A DNA stretch of 57,926 bases, taken from an uncultured Flavobacteriales bacterium (GTDB taxonomy: Bacteria > Bacteroidota > Bacteroidia > Flavobacteriales > CAJXXR01). Positions 8,799 to 40,979 of the stretch are shown in pieces; the first letter of the stretch is position 1, and each line of letters starts with the position of its first letter. Below the pieces are notes generated by a model. It was not told the origin of the DNA. It saw nothing but the letters and a program-made list of their open reading frames with translations, and searched no databases. Location of the stretch: NCBI GenBank assembly GCA_913063375.1, contig CAJXXR010000020.1, forward strand, positions 1 to 57,926, written 5' to 3'. Made by a program: the position numbers and the translations under genes.

Positions 8799-8819
8799 TT
8801 AGCAAACAATTAACACCTA

Positions 8820-11203: not shown

Positions 11204-11371
11204 AAAATAATTTTTAATGATTAACTATATAATAAATGTGTATCTCAAACATAAGATTAATGTAAATACGAGTCAATCACTGAATACTGGTATATTAAAA
11301 ACTAACCTTTTTACTTACTGATAGAACTAACCACACAATAGGATTCAATTAAACTACAATACCTCCTTAAC

Positions 11372-11676: not shown

Positions 11677-11697
11677 TTAGCAAACAATTAACACCTA

Positions 11698-12171: not shown

Positions 12172-12327
12172 TTTTAAATATTATAACTATTTCTTAATTA
12201 ACCAAGAATATATAATTATTGTACAATCAAGGTCACTATTTGATCGATAATTTCAAACTATCACAACCAAAAAAAACCACCCCCTTTTACAGGAGATGGT
12301 TTCATAAAAAATAATGGGGGTATATTT

Positions 12328-14058: not shown

Positions 14059-14342
14059 AAAATAATTTTTAATGATTAACTATATAATAAATGTGTATTT
14101 CAAACATAAGATTAATGTAAAAGCGAGTCAATCACTGAATACTGGTATATTTAAAACTAACCTCTCTATACGGTTGATTATAAGCATTTTACAAATTGTA
14201 ATTACAAGGGTAATTGCATCAATTTAACAAATTACATACTGATTGTTTTAATTTTAACTATTGTTACTATTTAGAAATAACAACTTTTTAAACATTACCA
14301 TTATTTACAAGTTTTAGGCATATTTTATCAAAAGTTATAAAA

Positions 14343-22959: not shown

Positions 22960-23072
22960 GTAAATGATTTAATAATTTGAAATAAAGAAAATACCCACAC
23001 TAATCAATTGTAGTACCAGCACCATGTACCCTACCAATGAGGGTACATCCTACCATAAGGTACTTGAATTAA

Positions 23073-25163: not shown

Positions 25164-25203
25164 AATCTAATCTGTTTGTTTGTTTATTAGTTTCTTTAAA
25201 AAT

Positions 25204-25860
25204 TTAATCCAATGTTTCGTAAGCCTCTACAATGTAAAATTGAGATTCCTTAATATGGTTTACCACCAATATTCTATCTCCCCTTTTCACTTGACCTTCT
25301 GTAGTTTTGATATTTATTCGATAATTTGAACCAGAGATGATCATCTCTCCTTGCCCCATTCTTGTACTATTGGCAGAAACCACGACATATCCTACTGCCC
25401 CAACCAAATCCTGAACTTCATCAGCATCCTTATCCAACAATGCAAATATCTTAACAAATGGATAGGTCACTGGCTTTGCGACCAACAGACTCACAATAAA
25501 AATGGGCAACAATAATAAGAGTGAAAATAAGAAAGAACCATTTCCCAACATATGATTTACCGTTACAGACAAAAGCCACATCGGAATTACCAAAAAGGTT
25601 AGAAAAACCATTAAAGGTATTTTATCAATATTGAAAAAGGACAGGACATTATTTAACCAGGATACTGAAATATCAGGATTTCCATCACCTTCCACTTCGG
25701 CATCCACTTCAACCTCTGCCTCCATTTCAATCTCTATATCAAATGTGCTGATATCCAATGCTCCGAATATTACAAGCAGCCAATAAAAGATTATAAATAC
25801 CAGCAATGCAGTTGGTATGAAATTTACCGCAGAAAAAGCGGCATGAAAAAGTTCCATCAT
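25204..25860 (-). CDS. NfeD-like membrane protein (short form, C-terminal OB-fold)
   Basis: Hydrophobic N-terminal half with 3-4 TM segments and an acidic EIEMEAEVEVDAEVEGD insert. The C-terminal beta-barrel (GQGEMIISGSNYRINIKTTEGQVKRGDRILVV) resembles YuaF/NfeD partners of flotillins. Located 40 nt upstream of the flotillin gene. Confidence 0.55.
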   Translation of the reverse strand: MMELFHAAFSAVNFIPTALLVFIIFYWLLVIFGALDISTFDIEIEMEAEVEVDAEVEGDGNPDISVSWLNNVLSFFNIDKIPLMVFLTFLVIPMWLLSVTVNHMLGNGSFLFSLLLLLPIFIVSLLVAKPVTYPFVKIFALLDKDADEVQDLVGAVGYVVVSANSTRMGQGEMIISGSNYRINIKTTEGQVKRGDRILVVNHIKESQFYIVEAYETLD

Positions 25861-25919
25861 GATCTAATAATTAATGAAGTATACCTAGTAAGTTTAAATT
25901 TGATCCTTTAGAATTGAAC

Positions 25920-26618
25920 TTATTTATTCAATCCCATTTTGGCTTTAAGGGCTGCCAAACTAGTAGCCGCATTTAATTCCTTGAGAGTCGTGTCAATTTC
26001 AACGCGTACCAGTTCATCAGAATCATTCAATTGAGCATATCCCTCAGCACTTGCTTCTTCCTGCAGTACTTTATCTTTCATTCTCTCCAACATGGCAATG
26101 GTACCAGATGAATCTATTTGCGCTATGTCTTTATTCAATTCTTTGGTAGTGGAAGCAACTACGGCACGTGCCCTCAATGTTTTCAATTCAGAATCCCATT
26201 GATCAACATTTAACTTCACTCGGCTAATATTGGCATTAAGCTGGGACAATGATGCATCAATCTTTTGCTTGTTCTTAGATGACTCCTTACTAAATTGTAT
26301 CTGCTCTTCTCGAAGAATCAATGCCTGGGTCGCCAACCAGTCAGCTTGCTCTTTATCCAAATCTCCATTCTTAGCACGTTCCAAAAGAATGCTAGCCTTT
26401 TCTTCATAATCTTTAGCCTTTGCAAGAAATTTTTCATGCTCATTCCTAGCTCTAATAGACATCGCCTTTACTTCTGCAAATGCTTTAAGGTGACTCTCTA
26501 AATGATTTTTCATATCTCTAATTCCTTGCTCCATAAGTTTAATTGGATCCTCCAATTTATCGATTGCAGAATGGGATTCTGCTTCACCAATCTTAAATAA
26601 ACGTTTTAAAAAATTCAT
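25920..26618 (-). CDS. PspA/IM30 (Vipp1, ESCRT-III-like) family protein, paralogue 1
   Basis: 232 aa coiled-coil protein. N-terminus MNFLKRLFKIGEAESHSAIDKLEDPIKLMEQGIRDMKNHL is collinear with PspA. First gene of the cluster. Confidence 0.85.
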   Translation of the reverse strand: MNFLKRLFKIGEAESHSAIDKLEDPIKLMEQGIRDMKNHLESHLKAFAEVKAMSIRARNEHEKFLAKAKDYEEKASILLERAKNGDLDKEQADWLATQALILREEQIQFSKESSKNKQKIDASLSQLNANISRVKLNVDQWDSELKTLRARAVVASTTKELNKDIAQIDSSGTIAMLERMKDKVLQEEASAEGYAQLNDSDELVRVEIDTTLKELNAATSLAALKAKMGLNK

Positions 26619-27172
26619 TATTTAACTAGTATTGATTCCCTGAATTAAAATAAATTAAGTAGAATACATTAAAAAATAACAACCCTATGAACCTTAGAGG
26701 AGCATGGTTAAAATCCATACACAATTATACTATTATTTTTAGCCATTTCCAAAAAATACAACGTGTTTTTATAACAAAATTGATATATAATTCAAAAACA
26801 AAACGGCTTATCCACATAAAACACAGGACAAACAAAGAATAACACACTCAAAACTAATAAATTATATAAAAACTAAAAATACCAGCACCAAGCATACTAA
26901 TATTATTAGCAATAAATACAATTTGTATTTATCTTTCCCCACTATATTTGTACATTTGATCTTCATTAACAAACAGATTATTAAAGGGCAATAAATATCA
27001 ATTATTCAAAATATAATTGTTCTGATTAAAAAAAAGGTTTTTATTGCATTGATGATTATCTACAATCCCTAAAAAGATAATCTAAACCACAGATTATTAA
27101 ATAAATACATCAATTTCAAAGGTGTATTTATAACATATGAAGTTTTATACTTCTAAAGAATAAATAAGCAAA

Positions 27173-28714
27173 TTGAAAAAAAGTCAATCTAGAATACTAA
27201 AATTAGCACTTTTCGCCACAGGACTATCTGGGATAGTTGCTGAATATATTTTATCCACCCTTGCCACCTACTTCCTTGGAGATTCTGTATTCCAATGGAC
27301 CATGATCCTTTCCATCATGTTATTTTCCATGGGGCTTGGAGCTAGGCTTAGCATGAAATTCAAAACCAATATTTTAGAAAAATTTCTAATTGCTGAATTT
27401 CTACTAACCCTTCTTACTTCAACTGCCGCCCTAACTACCTATTTCTTTATGGGGCATGCTGAAAATCTGGGATTCATCATATACAGCTTCTGTATTAGTA
27501 TTGGCCTTTTGATAGGTATGGAAATCCCACTGGTAACTAGGGTTAATGAAGAAAATGAAGAACTAAGAACCAATATTGCAGGTGTATTAGAAAACGACTA
27601 TTATGGAAGTTTGATAGGTGGTTTATTCTTTGTATTCATTGGTCTTCCTTATTTAGGCCTTACCCACACGCCATTTATTTTGGGTACCATCAACTTCCTA
27701 GTAGCCATATTACTTTTCATCAAACTAAAAGATCATATTGCTAAAAGGTTCAAAATTGGCTTTGCCATCACCATTCCAAGTTTAATAATTATACTAAGCT
27801 TCCTTAGCTATAATGCAGATGAGATAGTTCTATACGGGGAGCAAAAAAGATACAATGACAAGGTTGTTTTCTCTAAACAAACCAAATACCAAAAAATCAC
27901 AATCACCCAATGGCAAGAAAATTACTGGCTATACCTTAATTCCAGCAAACAACTTTGCACGTTTGATGAGTGGCTTTACCATGAACCACTGGTACATCCA
28001 GTAATGAAACTAACAACACACCCTAAGCATGTATTAATCCTAGGCGCAGGAGATGGTTGCGCAATCCGAGAGGTATTGAAATACGAAAATGTTGAAAAAA
28101 TCACCCTCGTAGACATTGATCCTGAGATGACCAAAATTGGTAGGTCCAACGAAATTTTCGTTAAGATGAACGACAGCGCCTATTACGATCCCAAAGTAAC
28201 GGTTATCAATCAGGACGCATTCCAATTTCTAGAAAATAATGAAGAATTTTACGATGTCATGATCCTAGATTTCCCTGATCCAAAAAGCATTGATATCAAC
28301 AGAGTTTATACCAAGGAATTTTACACCCTCTGCAACAAAAGACTTCGCCCATTGGGACATATCATTACCCAAGCCGTAAGCCCATATTATACAACAAAAG
28401 CCTTTAGGTCCATTGAAAAAACATTAGCTGCCTCTGGATTCAATACACTTCCAATTCACAACCACGTATACTCTTTTGGCGAGTGGGGATGGGTAATAGG
28501 TTCCAAATTCCAAGATAAGGAGAAAATGAAACAGCATCTACTGAAATCCAATTATCAAGATTTAGATGTACAATGGATCACCAATGAATCCATTAATCTT
28601 ATGACCTCCTTTGGCAAAGACCTTATCAAAGCAGATGACATAGAAGTAAACACCATTCATAACCCTGTCTTATACCGCTATTACCTAGACGGAACTTGGG
28701 CTAGATACCTGTAA
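27173..28714 (+). CDS. Membrane-anchored spermidine synthase-like aminopropyltransferase (paralogue 1)
   Basis: About 200 aa with ~7 TM helices, then a Spermine_synth domain (VLILGAGDGCAIREVL, TLVDIDPEMT, ILDFPDP). Confidence 0.75.
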   Translation: MKKSQSRILKLALFATGLSGIVAEYILSTLATYFLGDSVFQWTMILSIMLFSMGLGARLSMKFKTNILEKFLIAEFLLTLLTSTAALTTYFFMGHAENLGFIIYSFCISIGLLIGMEIPLVTRVNEENEELRTNIAGVLENDYYGSLIGGLFFVFIGLPYLGLTHTPFILGTINFLVAILLFIKLKDHIAKRFKIGFAITIPSLIIILSFLSYNADEIVLYGEQKRYNDKVVFSKQTKYQKITITQWQENYWLYLNSSKQLCTFDEWLYHEPLVHPVMKLTTHPKHVLILGAGDGCAIREVLKYENVEKITLVDIDPEMTKIGRSNEIFVKMNDSAYYDPKVTVINQDAFQFLENNEEFYDVMILDFPDPKSIDINRVYTKEFYTLCNKRLRPLGHIITQAVSPYYTTKAFRSIEKTLAASGFNTLPIHNHVYSFGEWGWVIGSKFQDKEKMKQHLLKSNYQDLDVQWITNESINLMTSFGKDLIKADDIEVNTIHNPVLYRYYLDGTWARYL

Positions 28715-28717
28715 TCT

Positions 28718-29797
28718 ATGTGGCTATTTAGCAGAAAAAAAGACTTTGGTATTCTGTACTTACCAGTATGGATAATCTGGATACTCCTATTCCTTCTTCC
28801 CAACGCAACACTCCATAGTGAACTTCCATTATGGGTTTGGGTCGTATTCATATTAGGAATAGATGTAAGCCATGTATGGAGCACTATTTTTAGAACCTAT
28901 TTTGACAAGCAAGAATTTAAGAGACACAAAACCATTTTAATTCTAGCCCCGATTTTTGCATTCATTATCCTGTTAGGAATTGCGCTAGAATCTTCTTTAT
29001 ACTTTTGGAGGACATTGGCTTATTTAGCGGTTTTCCACTTCATGAAACAACAATATGGGTTTTTCGCACTCTACAGTGCTAAAACAAAATCTTTTAACAA
29101 ACATAGATTTCTCAATGATAAATGGGTTCTCTACACCAGTATGCTATTCCCGGTACTATTCTGGCATTTCACCGACCGAAATTTTGACTGGTTCCTAGCT
29201 GGTGATTTCTTCTCTTTCAACTACCAACTAAGTGAGCAATTACAAAATGTACTAATCATTGCCTACTGGGGGATTTTACTAGCTTGGTTTATCGAAGAGA
29301 TTCACTTAATCAAAACAAAAGCAATAAAGCTATCATATGGGAGGATGTTATGGATGGGAACCACAGCTTTCAATTGGTTTCTAGGAATTATTTGGTTCAA
29401 CTCTGATGTTGCATTTACGCTAACCAATGTAGTTGCACACGGCATCCCTTATATCGCATTGATAATCATTTATCAAAATGCAAAAAGAAGCACAAAGAAT
29501 ACACTTCTTTATAAAAATGCATTTATTACTGGAGCAAGTATTTTGGTCTTTTCCTTCCTTTTTGCATTTTCTGAAGAATATCTTTGGGATATGTTTCTAA
29601 ACCGTGAAAAAACTGCATTTTTCAACAGTATTTTCCAGTATAGATTTGATAGTCTTACCAATGAAAAACTACAGTCCCTACTGCTAGTCACACTATCATT
29701 ACCACAGGTTACACATTATATCTTGGACGGATTTATTTGGAAAATGAATGACTCCAATCCACATCTTAAAAATATTTTAACAAAAGGAAATGGATAG
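28718..29797 (+). CDS. Polytopic membrane protein with conserved His clusters, function unknown
   Basis: 359 aa, 8 or more TM segments, recurrent His motifs (HVWSTIF, FHFMKQQYG, HGIPY). Starts 3 nt after the stop of 27173..28714 and overlaps the next gene by 8 nt. Confidence 0.55.
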   Translation: MWLFSRKKDFGILYLPVWIIWILLFLLPNATLHSELPLWVWVVFILGIDVSHVWSTIFRTYFDKQEFKRHKTILILAPIFAFIILLGIALESSLYFWRTLAYLAVFHFMKQQYGFFALYSAKTKSFNKHRFLNDKWVLYTSMLFPVLFWHFTDRNFDWFLAGDFFSFNYQLSEQLQNVLIIAYWGILLAWFIEEIHLIKTKAIKLSYGRMLWMGTTAFNWFLGIIWFNSDVAFTLTNVVAHGIPYIALIIIYQNAKRSTKNTLLYKNAFITGASILVFSFLFAFSEEYLWDMFLNREKTAFFNSIFQYRFDSLTNEKLQSLLLVTLSLPQVTHYILDGFIWKMNDSNPHLKNILTKGNG

Positions 29798-31301
29798 AAG
29801 AATGTTCTTAAAGTTAAGCGGAGGATTACTTTTCCTATCTGCTTGTGACAATGATTTTACCCAAAAATCTAAATTGAAAAATACTAGATTTAAAATCCAC
29901 ATCGACTCCAATGATAAAATTGGACACTTGGTACGATCTGCCGTCCAACTACCAATTTCAAGTACCATCAAAACAGAGACATTAATTGTAGGGGCAGGAA
30001 TATCTGGACTATCTGCTGCATGCACATTAAAGTCAAATGACTTTCAACTGTGTGAATTGAATCCAAACTTAGGCGGAACCTCAAGTGCCGTATCTATCCA
30101 TGGGAATTTATATTCACAAGGCGCCCATTACGATTTAGCCTATCCTAGCAATTATGGGAAGGATGGCTTAGAACTACTAGAACAGTTAAACGTTATCCAG
30201 TTTAACAGCACTAAAAACCTTTGGGAATTCAAAGACAAACAATACTTGATCTCTTCAAAAAATGAAGAAGCTTGTTATGATAACGGGAAATTGAGGGCTT
30301 CCATTTTAGAAGATTCCGAATTAAAGAAAAACTTTCTATCCTTAATAAAAGAATACGATAATCAATTCCCCCTACCAAGTACAGCGATCTCATCAGAATT
30401 ACATCATTTAGATCATATTTCTTTTGAAGACTACCTTAGGAAGTATCTACCTATTGACAATCATTTCCTTGAAGCAATTGACTATCAAATGTTGGATGAT
30501 TATGGAGCCGCAAGTAAACAAATATCTGCTCTTGCAGGTATCCATTACTATAAATGCCGCCCCTATTACAACCATCAGGAAATTGAACTATTTTCGCCAC
30601 AAAAAGGAAATTACTACTTCATAGAAAAGATGGTTGAGCAACTTCCTGAAGAAAACATTAACAGCAACCATTTAGTATTTAAGATTGAGCAAGAAGGAGC
30701 CAAATGGAAAGCAGACGTATTGGATGTTTTAAACATGTCAAGAAAACAATTCATTGTAGACAAATTGATTTATGCAGGACAAAAGCACGTTTTAAAATAT
30801 GCTCACCCTTCCTCATATCAAGAATTCAGTGACATAGATTATGCACCTTGGATTGTCATAAATTTAGAATTGGACGACTCACTACTTGACGGAAGTAAAT
30901 GGCAAAATGACTTTTTATCTCCCAATAGATCATTCCTAGGATTTGTTGATTCAAAAAATCAAGACAATACAAACACTCGAGTATTAACAGCCTACCACTG
31001 CTTCCCGGACATACACCACTTTATTGTTCAAAATATTTCAACCCATGCAGAAGACTTGGTAAACGAAACAATCAACAACATATCCCTATACTTTAAAAGA
31101 GATATTAGCCCAATGGTAAAACAAGTCCATGTAAAACTATTGGGACACGCCATGCCAATTCCGAAATTGGGTTACTTAACCAAGCAAAGAGTATTGGAAA
31201 AGGATGGTTTAGCATTTGCAGGGGCTGACACGGGAAGATTACCACTTATGTTCGATGCAATGGATTCTGGAATACAGGCCAGCAAATCGCTCGAAATATA
31301 A
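29790..31301 (+). CDS. Tat-exported FAD-dependent amine-oxidase-family lipoprotein
   Basis: Twin-arginine motif DRRMFLK plus lipobox LSAC. Dinucleotide fold VGAGISGLSAAC...LNPNLGGT, typical of flavin amine oxidase and protoporphyrinogen-oxidase-like enzymes. Confidence 0.6.
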   Translation: MDRRMFLKLSGGLLFLSACDNDFTQKSKLKNTRFKIHIDSNDKIGHLVRSAVQLPISSTIKTETLIVGAGISGLSAACTLKSNDFQLCELNPNLGGTSSAVSIHGNLYSQGAHYDLAYPSNYGKDGLELLEQLNVIQFNSTKNLWEFKDKQYLISSKNEEACYDNGKLRASILEDSELKKNFLSLIKEYDNQFPLPSTAISSELHHLDHISFEDYLRKYLPIDNHFLEAIDYQMLDDYGAASKQISALAGIHYYKCRPYYNHQEIELFSPQKGNYYFIEKMVEQLPEENINSNHLVFKIEQEGAKWKADVLDVLNMSRKQFIVDKLIYAGQKHVLKYAHPSSYQEFSDIDYAPWIVINLELDDSLLDGSKWQNDFLSPNRSFLGFVDSKNQDNTNTRVLTAYHCFPDIHHFIVQNISTHAEDLVNETINNISLYFKRDISPMVKQVHVKLLGHAMPIPKLGYLTKQRVLEKDGLAFAGADTGRLPLMFDAMDSGIQASKSLEI

Positions 31302-32843
31302 CTAATACAAATCCCAATTACCATCTAAATAGTAACGGTACAGTACTGGAGAATTTATAGTATTTACTTCCACCTTAGAGGTGTCAAACAAGGGTTTTCC
31401 AAAAGAAGTAATCAACTGAATAGACTCCCTATTCAACCATTTATTATTCAAATAGCTATAATCAGATTGACGCATTATATCAATCATTTTATCTTTAGTT
31501 AGACGCTTACTACCAATTATCCAACCCCATTCCCCTAAGGTCAAAACCTGATTATGCATCGGTAATGTATGGAATCCGGAAGATGACATTGTAGTCTCTA
31601 TGCACTTAAAAGCCTTAGTAGCATAATAGGGACTTCCAGCTTGGGTAATGATATGACCATTTGGGCGCAATAAACGATAAGCCATCTGATAAAATTCCTG
31701 CGTATACAACTTATTCAAATCGATACTTTTGGCATCAGGTAGATCAACAATTATTAAGTCAAAATAAGTTTCACACTGCTCTAAATATTTAAACCCATCC
31801 TGATTTAATATAGCAACCTTCGGATTAAAAAGGGCTGAATCATTATACTGTGTTAAGCCTTTAAAATCCATTCCTATTCGAGTCATTGCAGGGTCCAAAT
31901 CCACCAAGGTGATTTGATCCACATCCTCGTATTTTAAAAGCTCCTTCACATTAAAGCCATCTCCACCACCAATTATTAGAACGTCCTTATGCTCTGGAGT
32001 CAATGCAACTACTGGATGTACCATCGGCTCATGGTACAAAAACTCATCGAAGGTACTTAGTTGTTGATTTCCATTTATAAACAACCAATAATGCTCCTTC
32101 CATTGGGTAATGGTTATTTTCTGATAAGGAGTTTGCTCCGTGTATACAATCTTATCTTTATACCTAGATTGCTCACCAAACAGAACTACCTTTTCTGAAA
32201 GCGAAAATCCAACCATCAACAACAAACTAATGAAAAAGGAAACAGAATAAACCCACTTTTTTAATTGCGGATAATAGGACTTATAGTTCCAATACAATAA
32301 GACTGCAACAGTAAAATTTAAGGCACCGAAGGCGAATGCTGTATTGGTAATACCCAAGTATGGAAGACCAAAAAAGGCAAATGACAATCCCCCTATCAAA
32401 CTACCAATATAATCCCAAGACATAATATTGGATATATTCTTATCCAAACTTTCATGCTTCTCATTCAAGCGTGTTACTAGCGGGATTTCAAAACCAATAC
32501 AAACACCAATCAATAAGGCCAAACCATAAATTAGAATATGGATGAAATTGGTTGCTGAAGCTAAAGAGTAAACAACTAAAGGAGAAAAACTTATTAATAA
32601 TGATAAGGCAAATTCAACTGCAATAAAAGTGGCCAACAAATCTTTTGTCACAAATCGACTTAGACGACTCCCCACCCCCATTGCAAACAACATAATAGAC
32701 AAAACAACTGTCCATTGTATAATAGTATCACCTATAAAATAAGAGGCAAGGGTAGATAAAATAAATTCAGAAGTAAAGCCAGAAATTCCTGTGGCAAAAA
32801 TGGCCAACTTCAACCAAGTACCCTTGTCGATTTTAAACTGCAT
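31302..32843 (-). CDS. Membrane-anchored spermidine synthase-like aminopropyltransferase (paralogue 2)
   Basis: 513 aa, same architecture as 27173..28714 (VLIIGGGDGFNVKELL, TLVDLDPAMT, IVDLPDA). Its stop codon abuts the stop of the convergent FAD-oxidase gene (TAACTA). Confidence 0.75.
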   Translation of the reverse strand: MQFKIDKGTWLKLAIFATGISGFTSEFILSTLASYFIGDTIIQWTVVLSIMLFAMGVGSRLSRFVTKDLLATFIAVEFALSLLISFSPLVVYSLASATNFIHILIYGLALLIGVCIGFEIPLVTRLNEKHESLDKNISNIMSWDYIGSLIGGLSFAFFGLPYLGITNTAFAFGALNFTVAVLLYWNYKSYYPQLKKWVYSVSFFISLLLMVGFSLSEKVVLFGEQSRYKDKIVYTEQTPYQKITITQWKEHYWLFINGNQQLSTFDEFLYHEPMVHPVVALTPEHKDVLIIGGGDGFNVKELLKYEDVDQITLVDLDPAMTRIGMDFKGLTQYNDSALFNPKVAILNQDGFKYLEQCETYFDLIIVDLPDAKSIDLNKLYTQEFYQMAYRLLRPNGHIITQAGSPYYATKAFKCIETTMSSSGFHTLPMHNQVLTLGEWGWIIGSKRLTKDKMIDIMRQSDYSYLNNKWLNRESIQLITSFGKPLFDTSKVEVNTINSPVLYRYYLDGNWDLY

Positions 32844-32860
32844 TCAAGTAGAATTTAAGC

Positions 32861-33751
32861 CTAAGAAAAGCTCATACAGATTAGCATAGAACCACCCACA
32901 TATGCAAAGGCTTCAATTACAGCAGCGCCTACATTTGGATGTTCTTGGTTGATGATTTCATCTACCAATTTTCTTTTCGGAAGTAAGATCTTATCTGTCA
33001 AGATCCTAGCAATAGGCAATAACAACAGACCAATACCAGTTTCAAACAATAGATTCTCACCCACCATCATCCAACTTTCAGCCTCCATTTGAGCACCGAA
33101 TCTTATCAAATTCCCAATAGCAACTATTGCGCCTGCGAATCCTATTCCAACCGCTACATTATCTTTTTCAATATGCTCATGAATATCATAAGGTGTGATG
33201 GCATTATAAACCAATGCAACCAACATCAAAGCGACTTGAGCAAAGAGCCAGAATAGTAAAATACCAATAAAATTGTCTTGATTCTCTGCTATGACACCGC
33301 TAATAATCAATCCATTTGCAATACAAACAGCTCCCTCAATAACTCCTAAACCAACATTTTGATCTTCTATAATTTCCTTTTTTACGGAATACTTTCTCAA
33401 AACAACCTTATCAGAGATGATCATAGAAACATTTAGCAATACAATTGCCAATAATCCATAAATGGAAATATCTATAATATTATCTACGATATGATCAACT
33501 CCGTCTCCCGCATAAACGGCTGATATGACAATAACCAACCCAACATAATACCCAACATGAGCAAATGAAAAAGCTAGGTTATCTTTTTCCACCAATTCAT
33601 GATCTAAATCGATATCCTTATGAATTAATTGATATACTTTCTTCCCTACTAAAAATAGAACAAAGCTAACAGCCAAGTAAACCAAAGCCGTAAGTAGATT
33701 ATCTAATGATGATAAAAAATTAAAATGCATACTAGTATAGTTTAAATTCAA
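32861..33751 (-). CDS. Membrane protein with two tandem DUF350-like repeats (YjfL-like)
   Basis: Two internally repeated halves, each ...Y..I...D...E....N.A......G..V.......AV. The second ends ITPYDIHEHIEKDNVAVGIGFAGAIVAIGNLI. DUF350 assignment is from memory of the YjfL family. Confidence 0.45.
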   Translation of the reverse strand: MNLNYTSMHFNFLSSLDNLLTALVYLAVSFVLFLVGKKVYQLIHKDIDLDHELVEKDNLAFSFAHVGYYVGLVIVISAVYAGDGVDHIVDNIIDISIYGLLAIVLLNVSMIISDKVVLRKYSVKKEIIEDQNVGLGVIEGAVCIANGLIISGVIAENQDNFIGILLFWLFAQVALMLVALVYNAITPYDIHEHIEKDNVAVGIGFAGAIVAIGNLIRFGAQMEAESWMMVGENLLFETGIGLLLLPIARILTDKILLPKRKLVDEIINQEHPNVGAAVIEAFAYVGGSMLICMSFS

Positions 33752-33759
33752 TTAGGGAA

Positions 33760-34458
33760 TTATTTACCAAATCCAGATCCACGAGATCTACCTCCTGATC
33801 TACTTCTTGATGAAGACCAACCAGATTTTGTAGCACGCCTAGAGAAAAAAGATGGTCTAGACTTCTTAGTTTGAGCAGAATTGGTACCATATTTAGAGTA
33901 CTTTCCTTCTTTTGGACCATAATAGCTTCTTTTTCCATAATAGCCTCCCCCACGATATGTATTATAATCGCTTCTGTAAACAGGTCTGTTCATCATTCCG
34001 AACATCTGACTCATAAACATATATCGACCATAAAATGACCAAAATGAACTACCATTATGAGTTCTCCATTCACCATACTTGGAATCACCCACATATCTAT
34101 AACCTGGAGGAACTGCAACTTTAGATAAGGATCCATCTGGGCCCTTTTCCAAAACAACCATCCCTAAATTACCTTCATTCTTCCAAAAGAATTCTTTCTC
34201 CACTTCTTTCCAATCAGAAGTAGATTCAGTAGGAATACTATCAGCAACACGAATTACCTTATACTTGTGTTTATAGGTCTTAAAGAAAGTCCCATCTACA
34301 TCCATATCTTCAATGATGACAGAAAATTCTTTTTCATCACTTAACTCGACAATATAGCTATCAAGCGGTGATTTTTTATACTCTCGACCACCACAACTAC
34401 TCAAAATAGTAAACAACACTACGGCTATTCCACTAAAAAGAATTGATTTTAATTTCAT
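33760..34458 (-). CDS. Lipoprotein with Gly/Ser/Arg-rich C-terminal tail (possibly DUF1190/YjfM-like)
   Basis: Lipobox LSSCGG. A central aromatic/Met-rich block (FWSFYGRYMFMSQMFGMMNRP) and a GGGYYG...SRSRSGGRSRGSGFGK tail resemble E. coli YjfM. Confidence 0.4.
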   Translation of the reverse strand: MKLKSILFSGIAVVLFTILSSCGGREYKKSPLDSYIVELSDEKEFSVIIEDMDVDGTFFKTYKHKYKVIRVADSIPTESTSDWKEVEKEFFWKNEGNLGMVVLEKGPDGSLSKVAVPPGYRYVGDSKYGEWRTHNGSSFWSFYGRYMFMSQMFGMMNRPVYRSDYNTYRGGGYYGKRSYYGPKEGKYSKYGTNSAQTKKSRPSFFSRRATKSGWSSSRSRSGGRSRGSGFGK

Positions 34459-34465
34459 CTATGTT

Positions 34466-34996
34466 TTATCTAGGTAGAATGTTTGAAAACTCAAACGCAT
34501 CTACATTTTTACCTATTGCCGCACCGAATTCTTCTTCTCCCCATCGGTCAATAGAAATCAACTCCTTGGTTTCAGAATGTACATACATCCAATTCACCAA
34601 TTCAGATCCTTCTTCTTCACCTTCAATATAACAAATTCCTTGACTGGACTCGGTACGCTTATACGTTTTATTATTATACACCAATCTATTCGGTGCCTCA
34701 TCATTTGCAACAATACTATTCACTAAGTCGGCATCAATTTCAAAAATATCCACCTTCTTCCAAACTAAACATACCAATTTATCGTCGTCTTCGACGCTAA
34801 GGTAACAATCTTCAGTCCCAGAATCTAAAAAATATTCTTTGCTATAAAAATTATTTCCCCAATCATAGGTATATACCTTTTTCACCTCCCAAGTTTTCAT
34901 GAAATAATCCACAAGGAATCCCAATTTCATATCATTCAAGGTGAAATCTACATTCGGCTCTTCCTTTTTAGATTTAAAAAAATCAAATATTCCCAT
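34466..34996 (-). CDS. Hypothetical cytoplasmic protein (176 aa)
   Basis: Clean ORF sitting 3 nt after the stop of the upstream K+ channel gene. No diagnostic motifs. Confidence 0.5.
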   Translation of the reverse strand: MGIFDFFKSKKEEPNVDFTLNDMKLGFLVDYFMKTWEVKKVYTYDWGNNFYSKEYFLDSGTEDCYLSVEDDDKLVCLVWKKVDIFEIDADLVNSIVANDEAPNRLVYNNKTYKRTESSQGICYIEGEEEGSELVNWMYVHSETKELISIDRWGEEEFGAAIGKNVDAFEFSNILPR

Positions 34997-34999
34997 AAT

Positions 35000-35815
35000 T
35001 TATTTATTTTTCATGGTTTTACCACAATGCTCACAAACACAATCTTCTTTATCTTCCTTTTTATCCTTTTCAGTATTTCCGAATCCATTGGCTAAAATCC
35101 CAGCCGGAAGCGCAAATATTCCAATACCGAGGATAGCCATTACTCCGGCCATAACTTTACCCATAGCGGTAATAGGATAAACATCACCATAACCAACAGT
35201 AGTAAGTGTAGCTACTCCCCACCACATGGTAGCTGGGATACTCGAAAATGTTTCAGGCTGAACTTCATTCTCTATAAAATACATCAAACTTGAAGCAACC
35301 ACCAATAAAGTTATTACTGCAAAAAGCGATATAATTAATTCCTCTTTAGCAGCTTTCATCACTCTCTTTATATGTGAAAGTGCTTTATTATACCTTCCCA
35401 ACTTTAATATTCTAAACAATCGAAGCAAACGAACCCCTCTCAAAATTCTTAAATCCGCCTTTATTAATAATGGAACGAAGGCAGGGATTATAGCCAATAA
35501 ATCTACAATACTATAGAAGGAAAAAAAATATTTAATACGACCAGCAATTGGCCTACTATAGGCACTCTTCTCAGTAATAGACCAAATTCTTAATAAATAT
35601 TCAATGGAAAAAATCCCTATAGATATCCATTCAAGAATGGAAAAAATCTGTTGGAATTCAATCCTAATCCAGGAAACCGATTCCAAAATAACAGCTAAAA
35701 TATTTAGAAGGATTAAGGTGATTATTAAGAAATCTACACGACGACTTATCTCATCTCCCTTTTTCCCTTTCTCTAAAATTTCGTAACAACGACTTTTAAG
35801 GCTCCTGTAACTCAT
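35000..35815 (-). CDS. Voltage-gated K+ channel (6-TM Kv-like, KvAP-type)
   Basis: S4 voltage sensor RILRGVRLLRLFRILKLGR, pore helix and selectivity filter TLTTVGYGD, S5/S6 helices. The start codon abuts the speD stop (35815/35816). Confidence 0.8.
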   Translation of the reverse strand: MSYRSLKSRCYEILEKGKKGDEISRRVDFLIITLILLNILAVILESVSWIRIEFQQIFSILEWISIGIFSIEYLLRIWSITEKSAYSRPIAGRIKYFFSFYSIVDLLAIIPAFVPLLIKADLRILRGVRLLRLFRILKLGRYNKALSHIKRVMKAAKEELIISLFAVITLLVVASSLMYFIENEVQPETFSSIPATMWWGVATLTTVGYGDVYPITAMGKVMAGVMAILGIGIFALPAGILANGFGNTEKDKKEDKEDCVCEHCGKTMKNK

Positions 35816-36178
35816 TTACGATACTTGCATTATTCCCAATCCTCTCTTTACACTTTGATAACTATGATTTTTTGATTGTAATTTTTCTACCAAATAATCA
35901 TAGGTTTTCAAATAATCCATTTTCAGATTACAGGTGAAAAAATCCACTGCAGCATAACCGTTCTCTGGCCAAGTATGAATAGCCAAATGACTCTCTGCAA
36001 CAACAACAACTCCTGTTACTCCTTGAGGTGAAAATTTGTGAAAAACTGATTTTATCACAGTTGCTTTGGAAGCCTTAGCAGCTGCAATCATATCCACCTC
36101 CAATTCCTCCATATTATCTAACGCATCAAAAGAACAATCATTGAATTCCATTAAAATATGTAAGCCTAATTCCGCCAT
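35816..36178 (-). CDS. speD: S-adenosylmethionine decarboxylase proenzyme (class 1, pyruvoyl-dependent)
   Basis: 120 aa. Self-cleavage/pyruvoyl site VVVVAESHLAIHTWPE and FTCNLK match SpeH/SpeD. Confidence 0.8.
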   Translation of the reverse strand: MAELGLHILMEFNDCSFDALDNMEELEVDMIAAAKASKATVIKSVFHKFSPQGVTGVVVVAESHLAIHTWPENGYAAVDFFTCNLKMDYLKTYDYLVEKLQSKNHSYQSVKRGLGIMQVS

Positions 36179-36346
36179 CTATTTATTCCTTTTCTTTTAT
36201 ATCGTCTCCAAAAATACACAATGGTAAAAATTATAATTACCGGAAACAACAAACTAATAATCAGTGAAAAAGTCCACCAAATTGCCAAAATAATCAATAA
36301 TTGAATGATTAATGGGATTATATTCTTGAAACGCACAATTATAATT

Positions 36347-36382
36347 TTTTCTAAAAACCAAAAGAGGCCAAATAGCCTCTTT
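36347..36382 (-). terminator. Rho-independent terminator after PspA paralogue 2
   Basis: On the minus strand: aaagaggc/tatttg/gcctcttt hairpin followed by tggttttt, 20 nt past the PspA-2 stop. It separates PspA-2 from the speD operon. Confidence 0.6.
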
Positions 36383-36402
36383 CAATTCTTGATTAGGAAA
36401 TA

Positions 36403-37125
36403 CTATCCTTTATTTTCTTCTTTTTTCGCTGCCATCTTTGCCTTCAAAGCTGCCAAGCTATCTGATGCTTTACTAGCACCTGGATTACCAATAGCTTTAT
36501 CAATTTCCTCATCTACAGATCTTGATTCATTGGAAATATCACCATAAGCTTCTGACAAGGCTTCTTCTTGCTCTACCTTTTCCTTCATTCTTTCTAACAT
36601 AGAAATGGTATCTGAAGAATCAATAGAAGCCATTTGCTTATTTAGATTTTTGGTAGCGGAAGCAACCTTCACCCTAGCTTTTAAGGTTTTTAGCTCATTC
36701 TCCCATGAACCAATCTTTGAGCGTAAGGTCTTAACATTGGCTTCCAATTTTCTAACATTACCACCAAATTGAACCTGATCCTTTTGTAAACGAGTAGCAT
36801 TAGCCTCGCTGTCCACCTTTCGGTTTAACGCCTCGCTTGCCAATCTATCTGCTTCCTCTGCACCTATTTGGCCTGATTCAGCTCTTTGCAATAACAACAT
36901 AGCTTTTTTCTCATAATCTGAGGCTTTATTTTGTTCATTGCTAATATCATTTCTTGACCTGATCTCTAAAGCTTTCACTTCAGCCAATGCCTTTAAACAG
37001 CTTTCAAGATCCTTTTTCATATCTCTAATCCCCTGCTCAGTCATTTTGATAGGGTCTTCTAACTTATCCACTACGGAATTTACTTCTGATTTACCCAAGG
37101 TAAATAATCGCCTAAATATACTCAT
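36403..37125 (-). CDS. PspA/IM30 family protein, paralogue 2
   Basis: 240 aa. N-terminus MSIFRRLFTLGKSEVNSVVDKLEDPIKMTEQGIRDMKKDL parallels paralogue 1 and PspA. Confidence 0.85.
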   Translation of the reverse strand: MSIFRRLFTLGKSEVNSVVDKLEDPIKMTEQGIRDMKKDLESCLKALAEVKALEIRSRNDISNEQNKASDYEKKAMLLLQRAESGQIGAEEADRLASEALNRKVDSEANATRLQKDQVQFGGNVRKLEANVKTLRSKIGSWENELKTLKARVKVASATKNLNKQMASIDSSDTISMLERMKEKVEQEEALSEAYGDISNESRSVDEEIDKAIGNPGASKASDSLAALKAKMAAKKEENKG

Positions 37126-37137
37126 AACTACTGTTCC

Positions 37138-37533
37138 TTATCTTTTTGAAAATGTGATTAACTGATCTGAATATTCAGATAATAATAAACCTAAAGAATT
37201 GATAGACCCTTCTAGTTCATTTTGATCCAAATTTAGAATCTGCAAAGTATCCCTGAAAATTAACTTCTCCCCTGTTTCATCTAATACAAAAGCTCCATGA
37301 AGGATATCTCTGTTTTTCTGTAATAGTTGCTTATACACAGATGGGTCTGCATCTTTTAAATCTAGGATATGCTGCTCCAAAATCAAAAATGGATCTGCAC
37401 AGCCCAAAACGAAGTTCTTAATACCAACACTCTCATCCTCGATCACTAAAATACCATCATCTTCATTTTCCACAGTGATTAGATATCCGATGTCAAGGAG
37501 GAAATTCTTGACTTTTTCAAAGCTACTTGTCAT
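37138..37533 (-). CDS. Small acidic cytoplasmic protein co-transcribed with PspA-2 (YbjN/YjfI-like?)
   Basis: 131 aa, 12 nt upstream of PspA-2. The fold assignment is a guess. Confidence 0.45.
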   Translation of the reverse strand: MTSSFEKVKNFLLDIGYLITVENEDDGILVIEDESVGIKNFVLGCADPFLILEQHILDLKDADPSVYKQLLQKNRDILHGAFVLDETGEKLIFRDTLQILNLDQNELEGSINSLGLLLSEYSDQLITFSKR

Positions 37534-38003
37534 GTCTTTATTTTTCTTTATATCAGTCTATTAAATGGATTGTAATCTCATCATCTTCACAACCACTAAT
37601 TTATTTAAAATCTGCTGATTTTTTAAATTTTTTTGATGATTTCAGCATTCAAATTTATCCGTTTGCTAAATCCGATACACAATGATACTACAATTTTTAG
37701 TAATTGCACAATATTTTAGCAAAATAATTAGTGAAAATACAAGAATCACTCAAATAAACCTCCTTATCAAACGCACATCAGACTTAACAATACGCCCAAA
37801 GACTCAATAAATCCAATACTTTACACATACGATAGCAATATTGCTAATATAATTAGTAAACAAACCAAGCCAATTACAAATTCTTATCACTATTTGAAAT
37901 AATCTATATAAATTCTTGCATAAAAATGTAAGTACTGAATGAAAGAACCTATTTCACTTTAGAAATAAAATGACCTTATGATCAAAATTGATAACTTTGG
38001 ATT

Positions 38004-38429
38004 ATGAAAAATTACAGTGAAGACGAAATTGATGATTTAATCAAACGATTTGAAGCAAGAAGTCTACCGAAGGTAGAATGGACACATGAAGCTCATCTTG
38101 TTGTTGCTATTTGGTATGCACAAAAAAATGGGATGAATCAAGCACTAGACCTGGTGAGGGATTATATTACACAACACAACCAATCCGTCGGGACTCCCAA
38201 CACTGACACAGAGGGATACCATGAATCGATTACGAAATTTTGGTTGATAGCTGCTGATAAGTTCCTACAAACTGGACAATCACTATCAATTTCTCAGGCA
38301 TGTAATGCCTTTATCAATTCTCCACAAGGTAAAAGTAATTACCCTTTAAATTTCTATTCAGAAAAACGACTGTTTTCAGTTGAAGCAAGACGCTTTTGGA
38401 TAAGGCCTGATATAAAAGAAATGAAATAA
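38004..38429 (+). CDS. Hypothetical protein (141 aa)
   Basis: ORF with a downstream bidirectional terminator. No motif recognised. Confidence 0.45.
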   Translation: MKNYSEDEIDDLIKRFEARSLPKVEWTHEAHLVVAIWYAQKNGMNQALDLVRDYITQHNQSVGTPNTDTEGYHESITKFWLIAADKFLQTGQSLSISQACNAFINSPQGKSNYPLNFYSEKRLFSVEARRFWIRPDIKEMK

Positions 38430-38434
38430 CGCAT

Positions 38435-38474
38435 AAAAAAAAGCCGTTCCAAATTATTGGAACGGCTTTTTTTA
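38435..38474. terminator. Bidirectional terminator shared by 38004..38429 (+) and pruA (-)
   Basis: aaaaaaa, then agccgttcc/aaattatt/ggaacggct, then tttttt. Confidence 0.75.
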
Positions 38475-38488
38475 TTTTAATCCTATTC

Positions 38489-40114
38489 TTAACCTAAGAA
38501 TGGGTATCTATAATCTGTTGCAGGAACAAATGTTTCCTTGATTGTCTTTGCAGACACCCAACGCATCAAGTTCATTGCTGAACCAGCTTTATCATTTGTA
38601 CCAGAAGCTCTTGCTCCGCCAAATGGTTGTTGAGAAACAACTGCACCGGTTGGCTTATCATTAATATAATAGTTACCACATGCATTTTCCAATGCCTTAC
38701 TAGCACTATCAATGATATAACGATCAGTTGCAAACAAAGCACCAGTCAAAGCGTAAGGAGATGTTTCATCAACGATCTTCAATGTCTCTTCAAACTTATC
38801 CGCATCGTATACATAAATCGTTACTACAGGACCGAACAATTCTTGTTCCATCGTTTCGTAGTAAGGATTTGAAGTAACGATAATAGTTGGTTCGATAAAG
38901 TAACCTTTAGATTTATCGTAATTTCCACCTACAAGAATCTCAGCATCAGAAGCTGCTTTTGCACGGTCGATATAACTCGCCAATTTATTGAAAGAACCTT
39001 CGTGGATAACGGCATTGATGAAATTAGAGAAATCACCAGGATCACCCATTTTCACGGTAGCCATATCTGTTACCAATACATCTTTGATAGCCGCCCAAAG
39101 TGTATTTGGAGCGTATACTCTAGATGCTGCAGAACATTTCTGTCCTTGGTATTCGAATGAACCTCTAATGATAGCAGTAGCTGCAGGTCTCGCCTCAGCA
39201 GACTCATGAATCACAATAAAGTCTTTACCACCAGTCTCACCAACTATTCTTGGGTACGAGTTATACATATCGATATTGTTACCGATTTGCTTCCAAAGGT
39301 GCTTAAATACATGCGTAGAACCAGTAAAGTGAAGTCCAGCAAATTCTTTATGAGATATTACTACATCAGAAATCTCAACAGGATCACCATATACAACATT
39401 GATTACACCGTCTGGTAAACCAGCAGCCTTGAACAAGTCAACAATTACTTGAGCAGAGTATACTTGACTATCAGAAGGCTTCCAAACGATTACATTCCCC
39501 ATCAATGCAGGTGCAGAACAAAGATTGGCAGCAATAGAAGTAAAGTTAAATGGAGTAATTGCATATATAAATCCTTCCAAAGGTCTCAACTCCATTCTGT
39601 TCCACATTCCTGGATCAGATTCTGGTTGATCTTTATACAGTTGTGTCAAATACACAGCATTGAAACGCAAGAAGTCAATCAGCTCACAAGAAGCATCGAT
39701 TTCCGCTTGGAAGATATTTTTTGATTGTGCTATCATAGTAGCAGCATTCATTCTATTTCTGAAAGGACCAGCCAATAGATCAGCAGCTTTCAAAAAGATA
39801 GATGCACGGTGCTCCCATGGCATTTGTGACCAAGACTTTCTAGCCCCTAAAGCAGCATCGATAGCTTGTTTGGCATGTTCAGCACCACCGCGGTGATACT
39901 GTCCTACTACACGTTGGTGATCATGTGGAGGTGTAATTTGAGCAGTATTACCTGTTCTAACTTCCTCAGATCCGATATACATCGGGATATCCAACTGTTC
40001 GGACATCATTTTATTGTAAAGTGCTTGAACAGCTTCACGTTGTTCACATCCGGGAGCGTAAGGCTTCACCGGCTCACATGATGCGTGAGGCACATTAAAG
40101 AATGCATTTGCCAT
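38489..40114 (-). CDS. pruA: L-glutamate gamma-semialdehyde (1-pyrroline-5-carboxylate) dehydrogenase
   Basis: 541-aa aldehyde dehydrogenase with the P5CDH signatures VGETGGKDFIVIHESA and FEYQGQKCSAASR (catalytic Cys). Confidence 0.85.
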   Translation of the reverse strand: MANAFFNVPHASCEPVKPYAPGCEQREAVQALYNKMMSEQLDIPMYIGSEEVRTGNTAQITPPHDHQRVVGQYHRGGAEHAKQAIDAALGARKSWSQMPWEHRASIFLKAADLLAGPFRNRMNAATMIAQSKNIFQAEIDASCELIDFLRFNAVYLTQLYKDQPESDPGMWNRMELRPLEGFIYAITPFNFTSIAANLCSAPALMGNVIVWKPSDSQVYSAQVIVDLFKAAGLPDGVINVVYGDPVEISDVVISHKEFAGLHFTGSTHVFKHLWKQIGNNIDMYNSYPRIVGETGGKDFIVIHESAEARPAATAIIRGSFEYQGQKCSAASRVYAPNTLWAAIKDVLVTDMATVKMGDPGDFSNFINAVIHEGSFNKLASYIDRAKAASDAEILVGGNYDKSKGYFIEPTIIVTSNPYYETMEQELFGPVVTIYVYDADKFEETLKIVDETSPYALTGALFATDRYIIDSASKALENACGNYYINDKPTGAVVSQQPFGGARASGTNDKAGSAMNLMRWVSAKTIKETFVPATDYRYPFLG

Positions 40115-40346
40115 AACTATATTTTCGTTCTGTGGATAAACAAATTTTGAGCGAAGTTACAAAAAATGAAACAGATTTTGGGTACAATTTGTAACATCAC
40201 TAAAAGCAATTTTTCCGAACAATTAAAACATCAAAAATACAAACCAAACAAGGCAGTCTATTGTGTTATTTCAGTAATAGTACGTCAATATTTTTGTAAC
40301 TTTGTGGTTATAACGGCTAACATTGGTAGTCCCCAAATTATAAGTA

Positions 40347-40979
40347 ATGAACCATACTATAAAAGCCCTTGAATGGCGCTATGCTGTAAAAGCATTTGAC
40401 CCAAATCATAAATTAACAGATCATCAAGTAGAAGGAATCAAAAAGGTACTTAACCTTACCGCTAGCTCATACGGTTTGCAACCTTTTAAGTTTGTATTTG
40501 TTGACAATGTTGAAAAGAGAGAACAATTATTAGCCTATTCTTTCAAACAAAGACAAGTAATTGATGCATCTCATCTTTTGATAATGGCTATTGAAACTAA
40601 CGTGGATGATAACTTTGTAGAAAGTTACCTGGATAACATTTCCGAAACAAGAAAGGTTGAAAAAGATAACCTAACGCAATTTGGAGCAATGATGAAAGGT
40701 AGCATTGGAAATCTGGATCAAGATGGAAAGGAATCTTGGGCAAAAAATCAAGCATATATTGCCTTAGGGAATATATTGACCTACTGCGCCGTAGAAGGAA
40801 TTGACACCTGCCCAATGGAAGGATTTGTTGCTGACGCTTACGACGAAATTTTAGGATTCCATGAAATGGGATTAAAATCTGTATTAGTTGTCCCTCTAGG
40901 AATACGCTCTTCTGAAGATCAGTATCAAAATTTACCAAAAGTACGTAGACAAACAGATGATATAATTAAACATATCTAA
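40347..40979 (+). CDS. NAD(P)H nitroreductase family protein
   Basis: 210 aa. N-terminal ALEWRYAVKAFD...SSYGLQPFKFVFV is typical of the NfsB/nitroreductase fold. Confidence 0.8.
   Translation: MNHTIKALEWRYAVKAFDPNHKLTDHQVEGIKKVLNLTASSYGLQPFKFVFVDNVEKREQLLAYSFKQRQVIDASHLLIMAIETNVDDNFVESYLDNISETRKVEKDNLTQFGAMMKGSIGNLDQDGKESWAKNQAYIALGNILTYCAVEGIDTCPMEGFVADAYDEILGFHEMGLKSVLVVPLGIRSSEDQYQNLPKVRRQTDDIIKHI

Follow-up and report, generated by a model that had tools for sequence, protein, structure and literature searches.

We analysed a 57,926-nt stretch of DNA from an uncultured marine Flavobacteriales bacterium (contig CAJXXR010000020.1, hereafter the window), whose minus strand carries, between positions 37533 and 31302, an operon coding for a PspA/IM30-family protein, an S-adenosylmethionine decarboxylase (AdoMetDC, SpeD), a membrane-anchored aminopropyltransferase and several envelope proteins. 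The interpretation that we prefer, and to which we give about an even chance, is that this operon is a Bacteroidota member of the known second group of CesT/Tir-PspA envelope operons, and that it aminopropylates an acceptor other than putrescine at the membrane. The genes for a DUF4178 protein, a lipoprotein, a DUF350 membrane protein and a fusion enzyme made of a transmembrane (TM) and an aminopropyltransferase part form a fixed, tightly packed set, and occasional fusions within this set point to one membrane complex. The genes are arranged alike in dozens of genomes that belong to several orders of Bacteroidota, a linkage far beyond chance.

The eight genes that a first-pass annotation of the window had listed between 31302 and 37533 are all present at the positions it gave (open reading frame (ORF) listing, Pfam and NCBIfam). 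Seven of them have strong Pfam support, the exception being the lipoprotein gene. A further gene, sm56, was absent from that list. In the direction of transcription, the features are the following:

37138..37533, minus strand: CesT/Tir-like (YbjN-type) small acidic protein, 131 aa (Pfam CesT_Tir_1, 6e-53; YbjN, 2.5e-5)
36403..37125, minus strand: PspA/IM30-family protein, paralogue 2 (PspA-2), 240 aa (Pfam PspA_IM30, 4e-45)
36350..36392, minus strand: strong stem-loop with a U-rich 3' side, just past the pspA stop codon (RNA fold)
36166..36336, minus strand: sm56, a basic peptide of 56 aa with two hydrophobic segments (ORF and protein-level conservation)
35816..36178, minus strand: SpeD, class 1b AdoMetDC proenzyme, 120 aa (Pfam AdoMet_dc, 8e-38)
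35000..35815, minus strand: six-TM voltage-sensor-type K+ channel, 271 aa (Pfam Ion_trans, 2e-33; Ion_trans_2, 2e-13)
34466..34996, minus strand: acidic DUF4178 protein, 176 aa (Pfam DUF4178, 3e-21)
33760..34458, minus strand: lipoprotein, 232 aa (lipobox Cys22; no Pfam family)
32861..33751, minus strand: tandem DUF350 (YjfL-family) membrane protein, 296 aa, ~8 TM segments (Pfam DUF350, 4e-56, two repeats)
31302..32843, minus strand: fusion enzyme, 513 aa, with ~7 N-terminal TM segments and a C-terminal aminopropyltransferase domain of SpeE fold (Pfam Spermine_synth, 5e-36)

From sm56 through the fusion enzyme, the genes overlap or are separated by at most 17 nt. The operon contains no gene beyond the fusion enzyme, whose stop codon abuts that of a convergent oxidase gene.

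The description of the last gene product as a membrane-anchored spermidine-synthase-like enzyme was borne out, with seven predicted TM segments and a Spermine_synth domain at residues 267-446. The protein scores 533 bits with the NCBIfam equivalog PRK03612 (cut-off 472) and stays below the cut-offs of the canonical SpeE models (TIGR00417, 137 vs 249.55 bits; PRK00811, 173 vs 260). Judged from its sequence, it belongs to a family separate from the canonical spermidine synthases, with more than 4,000 homologues at E<=1e-10 among the 8,000 candidates scored. Across 61 homologues, the GGGDG motif, D315/D317, D349 and the catalytic pair D367-L-P-D370 are invariant, and so are the glutamates E26, E77 and E119, which lie embedded in the membrane; the protein keeps all the catalytic motifs of aminopropyltransferases. 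The AlphaFold2 (AF2) model has a mean predicted local distance difference test score of 90.5, and the best Foldseek matches are the T. thermophilus triamine/agmatine aminopropyltransferase and P. calidifontis SpeE; the catalytic domain is also near plant thermospermine synthase, so that its fold is nearest to enzymes of broad specificity. In the model, six long helical stretches over residues 7-227 hold seven hydrophobic segments. The numbers of lysines plus arginines per loop, calculated over the 61 sequences, are 2.05, 0.0, 1.67, 0.2, 2.59, 0.13 and 2.62. These charges predict a cytoplasmic N-terminus and, if all seven segments span the membrane, a catalytic domain outside the cytoplasm.

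SpeD scores 134.5 bits with the NCBIfam equivalog TIGR03330 (cut-off 75.65) and aligns without gaps with residues 1-106 of the T. maritima AdoMetDC 1tlu. The alignment keeps AESHLAIHTWPE...FTC, covering the Glu-Ser (ES) site of self-cleavage, the HTWPE and FTC motifs and the active-site His and Cys. By these features SpeD is a canonical class 1b AdoMetDC and can therefore supply decarboxylated S-adenosylmethionine (dcAdoMet). The start of the channel gene abuts the speD stop codon. Its translation shows the S4 arginine repeat LRILRGVRLLRLFRILKLGR and the filter TTVGYGD, and lacks a cytoplasmic ligand-binding domain. The operon resembles the canonical SpeD/SpeE pathway of T. maritima and E. coli in its class 1b SpeD, the dcAdoMet-binding residues and the catalytic aspartates. 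Unlike canonical SpeE, the fusion enzyme has an N-terminal polytopic domain of ~225 residues, a family-specific C-terminal extension of ~60 residues and obligatory envelope-protein partners.

Such combinations have reportedly been met before. In the work of Li et al. from 2019, thousands of class 1b AdoMetDC genes are said to co-occur with a gene for a membrane-protein/SpdSyn-like fusion; those AdoMetDCs are reported to be active in species without spermidine, and both the fusion and its soluble domain reportedly fail to complement an E. coli speE deletion. The same work is said to have found DUF350 genes clustered both with AdoMetDC/fusion genes and with GspS-family genes.

Starting from an alignment of the fusion enzyme, we obtained 78 genome loci, nearly all from Bacteroidota, and searched their six-frame ORFs with the proteins of the window; the 59 loci with at least 5 kb of upstream sequence served for the analysis of synteny. 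The DUF4178, lipoprotein and DUF350 genes directly precede the enzyme gene, in that order, in 37 of the 59 (full cassette). A PspA gene lies upstream on the same strand in 27 of the 37 full-cassette loci, which belong to several Bacteroidota orders, and a CesT-like gene is also found upstream in 24; the predicted co-conservation of PspA with the speD/aminopropyltransferase cassette was thus observed. The genes for PspA and its chaperone-like partner are thus often found upstream but are dispensable, and the hairpin sets them off from the cassette. Within the full-cassette loci, speD occurs somewhere in 28/37 and the channel gene in 21/37. These two genes move together as a pair, adjoining on the same strand in 19 of the 22 loci that have both. 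The pair is located between pspA and the DUF4178 gene in the Flavobacteriales clade of the window, and downstream of the fusion enzyme in Cytophagales and Bacteroidales.

The gene after the channel, which had been called hypothetical, is present as described and can now be assigned to DUF4178. Its product has no signal peptide and begins with MGIFDFFKSKK. Most of ~50 DUF4178 orthologues from our loci (L001-L078) start with MG[LI]FD.FKKK, which resembles the N-terminal amphipathic helix of PspA/Vipp1 (in the PspA encoded nearby, MS[LI]FKRLF). E. coli YjfK (DUF2491; L079:6303-6962), otherwise unrelated to DUF4178, begins with MSGFFQRLFGK. This N-terminal motif, common to DUF4178, PspA and YjfK, may serve in membrane binding or chaperone docking. 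A relationship between DUF4178 and YjfK/DUF2491 was considered and rejected, as hhalign gave 1.4% probability with an alignment restricted to the N-terminal G[LF]F..F.K. Sequence searches found no PDB relative of the DUF4178 protein. A literature search found no experimental study of DUF4178, Ravi et al. (2024; PMC11237479) being the only one among the matches listed to mention it. The DUF350 assignment of the following membrane protein was confirmed, and BLASTP relates it to E. coli YjfL (6e-4).

The lipoprotein consists of a lipobox with Cys22, a small beta-rich domain (~30-141), an aromatic/Met-rich segment and a basic tail rich in S, G, R and Y, which is predicted to be disordered and periplasmic. 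The lipobox cysteine is invariant. The C-terminus, ...G[FYS]GK, was found in all 120 listed database homologues, in 60/60 ORFs of our loci and in 123 of 150 distant representatives, and this strict GK end stands out against an otherwise low-complexity, variable tail. The first-pass annotation had proposed a YjfM-like (DUF1190-like) tail, and this part of it did not hold. Pfam gave no DUF1190 match at E<=1 for the lipoprotein itself, and one of 47 orthologues touched that family (E=0.084) in a search at E<=10; DUF1190 was found in none of 52 distant representatives at 50% identity, and no Pfam domain in any of the 120 listed homologues. Comparison by hhalign with an alignment of E. coli YjfM and its relatives gave 2.3% probability, and 0.2% for the C-terminal halves alone. 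The identification as DUF1190/YjfM-like was therefore rejected; the resemblance is compositional, both tails being rich in S, G and R. As a separate observation, proteins P0457, P0480 and P0490-P0501 have 450-490 aa, with an N-terminal TM segment, a long helical region and a C-terminal lipoprotein-like domain.

In several genomes the partners are fused in frame, DUF4178 to the lipoprotein in L040 (7838-9133), P0244, P0358, P0400 and P0477, and the lipoprotein to DUF350 in P0452. The DUF4178-lipoprotein fusions have a lysine-rich linker ahead of the former signal peptide, which puts DUF4178 on the cytoplasmic side. The lipoprotein tail of P0452 runs straight into a DUF350 domain whose N-terminus has no positive charges, which places the tail in the periplasm. 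The two kinds of fusion together thus argue for a single trans-membrane complex. A second TM segment of the lipoprotein that would put its tail in the cytoplasm was also considered; neither the AF2 model nor the lipoprotein-DUF350 fusion supports it.

At the 5' end of the operon, the small acidic protein noted earlier (pI 4.3) proved to be CesT/Tir-like, and its gene lies 12 nt from that of PspA-2 on the same strand. PspA-2 scores below the NCBIfam cut-offs for PspA proper (TIGR02977, 64 vs 243 bits; PRK10698, 37 vs 336) and matches E. coli YjfJ (BLASTP, 6e-7). On these scores it is a PspA/IM30-family paralogue rather than PspA proper, with an N-terminus, MSIFRRLF, that is kept in orthologues. 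The terminator proposed after pspA corresponds to a real, strong hairpin (free energy of -19.5 kcal/mol, z -3.95, with 0/200 shuffles equally stable), which was not among the matches of a consensus terminator scan. GC-rich hairpins followed by U-runs are common 3' of pspA in other loci, whichever gene comes next. We regard the hairpin as a candidate intrinsic terminator or attenuator dividing the dyad from the enzyme cassette. As an attenuator, it could give a high ratio of PspA to cassette products. The sm56 gene that follows has a GTG start, overlaps the start of speD by 13 nt and codes for a peptide of pI 12. It is conserved as a protein (WW.F.L...IP..II..G.Y.W..Y) at the same position in L001, L002, L010, L013, L024 and L067, and the Pfam scan placed it in no family; candidate roles are those of a small membrane subunit and of a speD leader peptide. 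With regard to promoters, a sigma-70 scan, whose consensus is not applicable to Bacteroidota, showed no enrichment. The Bacteroidetes pattern TTG-N19-TAnnTTTG was marginally enriched (56 matches vs 41.5 +/- 6), with one-mismatch candidates 5' of the CesT gene, of the gene for PspA paralogue 1 and of the gene for a 7TM-SpeE paralogue, and none ahead of speD.

Ravi et al. (2024; mSystems 9:e00847-23; PMC11237479) described three groups of CesT/Tir-PspA operons, and noted that the CesT-PspA dyad also occurs as a stand-alone unit. Their second group has the same domain list as the window operon. In its example, Shewanella oneidensis SO_3765, the neighbourhood comprises LipoSIG+Ctha_1186+Low-comp, YjfL-TM, TM+Spermine_synth, CesT_Tir, PspA, DUF4178 and RHH (supplement of PMC11237479), the RHH transcription factor being the last gene 'in some cases' of the group. 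The operon was proposed to monitor polyamines or aminopropylation. The window operon thus shares with S. oneidensis MR-1 (SO_3765/SO_3766) the lipoprotein, DUF350, TM+Spermine_synth, CesT/Tir, PspA and DUF4178 proteins. For the lipoprotein, the match is one of architecture (lipobox, small beta domain and disordered low-complexity tail). The gene order differs: in Shewanella the lipoprotein gene comes first and that of DUF4178 after pspA, whereas in the window the CesT-PspA dyad comes first and the enzyme last. In addition, the window operon lacks the RHH regulator, has speD, the Kv-type channel gene and sm56 inserted after pspA, and lies alongside a convergent module with a paralogous enzyme and an oxidase and a group 1 PspA-flotillin-AAA+ operon.

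The third group of the same authors, the yjf type, combines an ATP-grasp ligase with DUF1190, DUF2491, DUF350 and a K+ channel, and variants of it encode AdoMetDC and polyamine oxidase; they credited the AdoMetDC linkage to Li et al. 2019 (Biochem J 476:2579), as cited in PMC11237479. The operon type is therefore not undescribed, as had been thought, and the central idea of the first-pass annotation is correct but already published. Its comparison with E. coli yjfIJKLMC stood for three of the six components, namely PspA (YjfJ), the CesT/Tir-superfamily partner (YjfI) and DUF350 (YjfL), and failed for YjfM (DUF1190) and YjfK (DUF2491), neither of which is detectably related to the lipoprotein or the DUF4178 protein of the window. 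YjfI belongs to DUF2170 and the window protein to CesT_Tir_1, so that their common superfamily is taken from Ravi et al. (2024), BLASTP having found nothing. Both operons also have a lipoprotein-like protein with a tail rich in S, G and R, and both end with a gene for an enzyme of polyamine chemistry. E. coli differs in having an ATP-grasp ligase rather than an aminopropyltransferase, a single DUF350 rather than a tandem and no speD. The view that SpeD and a membrane-anchored aminopropyltransferase stand where E. coli has a GspS-like ATP-grasp enzyme agrees with our Pfam scan, in which GSP_synth was absent from the 18 proteins encoded at 23073-40979; the E. coli proteins themselves scored 5e-149 (YjfC, GSP_synth) and 3e-17 (YjfM, DUF1190). 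The yjfIJKL genes are strongly up-regulated in heat-evolved E. coli strains (PMC12492005). Compared with the classical Psp system of Enterobacteria (PspF-ABCDE), the window shares a PspA/IM30-family effector with an N-terminal amphipathic motif, whose partner is CesT/Tir-like instead of PspB, PspC or PspF.

According to the interpretation that we favour, the fusion enzyme would move aminopropyl groups from dcAdoMet onto an amine acceptor other than putrescine. The membrane domain of the enzyme itself, lined with acidic residues, might hold this acceptor or let it through, such that a polycationic product would arise at the interface between cytoplasmic membrane and periplasm; the substrate or product may be membrane-associated, as proposed earlier. 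A Tat-exported (twin-arginine translocation) amine oxidase encoded by the convergent module, called module B below, would act in the periplasm, removing or degrading these products. The K+ channel might adjust the cation balance or the membrane potential, and PspA, in excess because of the attenuator hairpin, would stabilize the membrane under the same stress. As acceptor we would favour a small amine or a lipid head-group over the lipoprotein tail.

Several observations weigh against this scheme. The catalytic residues all fit ordinary polyamine synthesis, and the NCBI model that recognizes the fusion enzyme is named 'polyamine aminopropyltransferase'. An outward catalytic domain, as expected from seven TM segments and the positive-inside rule, is hard to reconcile with dcAdoMet being made in the cytoplasm. 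DSSP applied to the AF2 model returns residues 133-190 as one unbroken helix, and a topology with six TM segments and a cytoplasmic C-terminus is therefore possible. The roles of the channel and the oxidase are deduced from gene linkage only. Close relatives (L005, L009 and L010) lack the upstream CesT-PspA dyad, and L007 and L008 have PspA but no CesT, so the cassette does not require PspA. Finally, as the strong hairpin separates pspA from the remainder, the two parts may have separate transcripts.

The last two points would also be expected if the window simply juxtaposed a stand-alone CesT-PspA stress dyad, such as those reported by Ravi et al. (2024; PMC11237479), and a functionally unconnected operon running from speD to the speE-like gene. 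We find this the least probable of the accounts considered here. The PspA gene lies next to the cassette, on the same strand, in the majority of full-cassette loci and in several Bacteroidota orders, whether speD intervenes or the DUF4178 gene directly follows pspA; Shewanella links the same gene set in a different order; and DUF4178 has a PspA-like N-terminal motif. Moreover, hairpins after pspA are common even where the gap to the DUF4178 gene is only a few bases long, and attenuation inside an operon therefore fits better than a boundary between two operons.

Another possibility is ordinary polyamine biosynthesis, in which SpeD would feed a membrane-tethered spermidine, spermine or norspermidine synthase and the free standard polyamine would perhaps leave through the fused membrane domain to coat the envelope, PspA being only loosely co-regulated. 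In P. aeruginosa, surface-localized spermidine is said to protect the outer membrane, as reported by Johnson et al. in 2012. The intact aminopropyltransferase motifs, the equivalog name, the canonical SpeD and the polyamine-type amine oxidase next door are all in line with such a pathway. We nevertheless consider it unlikely, as the fusion enzyme falls under the cut-offs of the canonical SpeE models and as plain biosynthesis would call neither for its fixed and obligatory association with three envelope proteins that are not enzymes nor for the fusions among these. The spermidine-free hosts and the failed speE complementation that Li et al. reportedly found also speak against it.

The conserved ...G[FYS]GK end on an otherwise variable tail raises the possibility of protein tagging. 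The C-terminal, or another, lysine of the lipoprotein would then be aminopropylated in the periplasm by an outward catalytic domain supplied with dcAdoMet through the seven TM segments. This would agree with the predicted disorder and periplasmic location of the tail, its direct junction with DUF350 in P0452, the topology given by the loop charges for seven TM segments and the export of the oxidase. We know of no dcAdoMet-dependent enzyme that acts outside the cytoplasm, where the by-product methylthioadenosine would be lost; moreover, the TM segments may number six rather than seven, and no lipoprotein of this kind accompanies the paralogous enzyme of module B. The E. coli YjfC and YgiC, encoded beside lipoproteins with similar low-complexity tails, offer a parallel, since they have peptide-spermidine ligase activity with a physiological substrate described as unidentified (Pederick 2023, as summarised in PMC11762307). 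However, YjfC has no signal peptide, so that this parallel calls for modification in the cytoplasm, and hhalign detected no homology between the two lipoprotein families. On balance we regard tagging of the lipoprotein as rather improbable. A more elaborate version appears slightly less probable still, namely that the outward aminopropyltransferase builds a tag on the terminal lysine of the lipoprotein within a DUF4178-lipoprotein-DUF350 complex and that the module-B oxidase erases such tags. If it were true, the yjf/ygi systems of E. coli would arrive at a comparable result through ligation of spermidine to the carboxylate of a peptide, and both would represent a family of polyamine-tagged envelope proteins working with PspA.

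Returning to the preferred interpretation, a non-putrescine acceptor at the membrane, what the window holds is a further member of a known, biochemically uncharacterised operon type and not a system of a new kind. This very widespread operon family ties PspA, an ESCRT-III-like membrane-repair protein, to polyamine chemistry. New handles from the present analysis are the ...GK end of the lipoprotein, the recurrent partner fusions, the predicted outward catalytic domain and the paralogous module with a Tat-exported oxidase.

That module, module B, adjoins the operon, which the first-pass annotation had missed. It is convergent on the operon, the stop codons of its oxidase gene and of the 7TM-SpeE gene abutting, and comprises the following genes:

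27173..28714, plus strand: second 7TM-aminopropyltransferase, 52% identical to the first, opening the module (same Pfam and NCBIfam matches)
28718..29797, plus strand: Mem359, a polytopic membrane protein of 359 aa (conserved beside the paralogue)
29790..31301, plus strand: flavin amine oxidase (Pfam Amino_oxidase, 2e-6; NAD_binding_8, 3e-7)

In a neighbour-joining tree, the module-B enzymes form their own clade. Mem359 matches no Pfam or NCBIfam family; it is conserved beside the paralogue in 14 loci, with the invariant motifs KQQYGF, WH...R, FNSD, AHG.PY and HY..DGFIWK. The N-terminus of the oxidase contains a twin-arginine signal and a lipobox, MDRRMFLKLSGGLLFLSAC, and an RR motif followed by a cysteine is present in 18/18 orthologues. 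The oxidase is therefore predicted to be a Tat-exported periplasmic lipoprotein. In L029, speD, the channel gene, the SpeE gene, that of Mem359 and that of the amine oxidase form one same-strand run, in which speD and the channel gene head module B and not the PspA cassette. Module B probably draws on the same SpeD as the operon. With its aminopropyltransferase and oxidase, the module, also seen in L020, L027 and L029, resembles a writer/eraser pair acting on an exported amine.

A second PspA operon is found on the minus strand at 18076-26618:

25920-26618, minus strand: PspA paralogue 1
25204-25860, minus strand: multi-TM protein of 218 aa (no family found in Pfam/NCBIfam)
23073-25163, minus strand: protein with a TM segment and a Band_7/flotillin coiled coil (Band_7, 2e-12, seen only when the N-terminal 230 aa were scanned alone)
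18076-22959, minus strand: 1627-aa protein with DUF3686, DUF7902 and an AAA ATPase domain

This operon corresponds to group 1 of the CesT/Tir-PspA operons that Ravi et al. (2024) described. No CesT-like gene precedes PspA paralogue 1, the region 26619-27172 having no ORF longer than 51 aa. Thus, both published types of PspA operon, the AdoMetDC-channel pair and a writer/eraser-like pair of aminopropyltransferase and exported oxidase are found within 20 kb of the window.

Elsewhere the window carries ordinary chromosomal genes, among them purL, a uvrA-like gene, recQ and a TonB receptor gene. A tandem segmental duplication of ~3 kb with ~90% identity is located at 8173-14060, in the form of four gap-free blocks spaced by 2855-3143 nt. 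The first copy has a uracil-DNA glycosylase-like gene and a gene for a 165-aa protein for which the second copy has no ORF of at least 100 aa; the duplication also contains two ORFs of 576 aa without known family (9473-11203 and 12328-14058). Upstream of the PspA-2 operon are a gene for an aldehyde dehydrogenase of 541 aa (38489-40114, minus strand) and, between that gene and the operon, a plus-strand ORF of 141 aa (38004-38429). In L017, an aldehyde dehydrogenase gene is found directly 3' of the fusion enzyme gene. This neighbourhood could be due to chance or could be tied to aminoaldehyde products of the amine oxidase.

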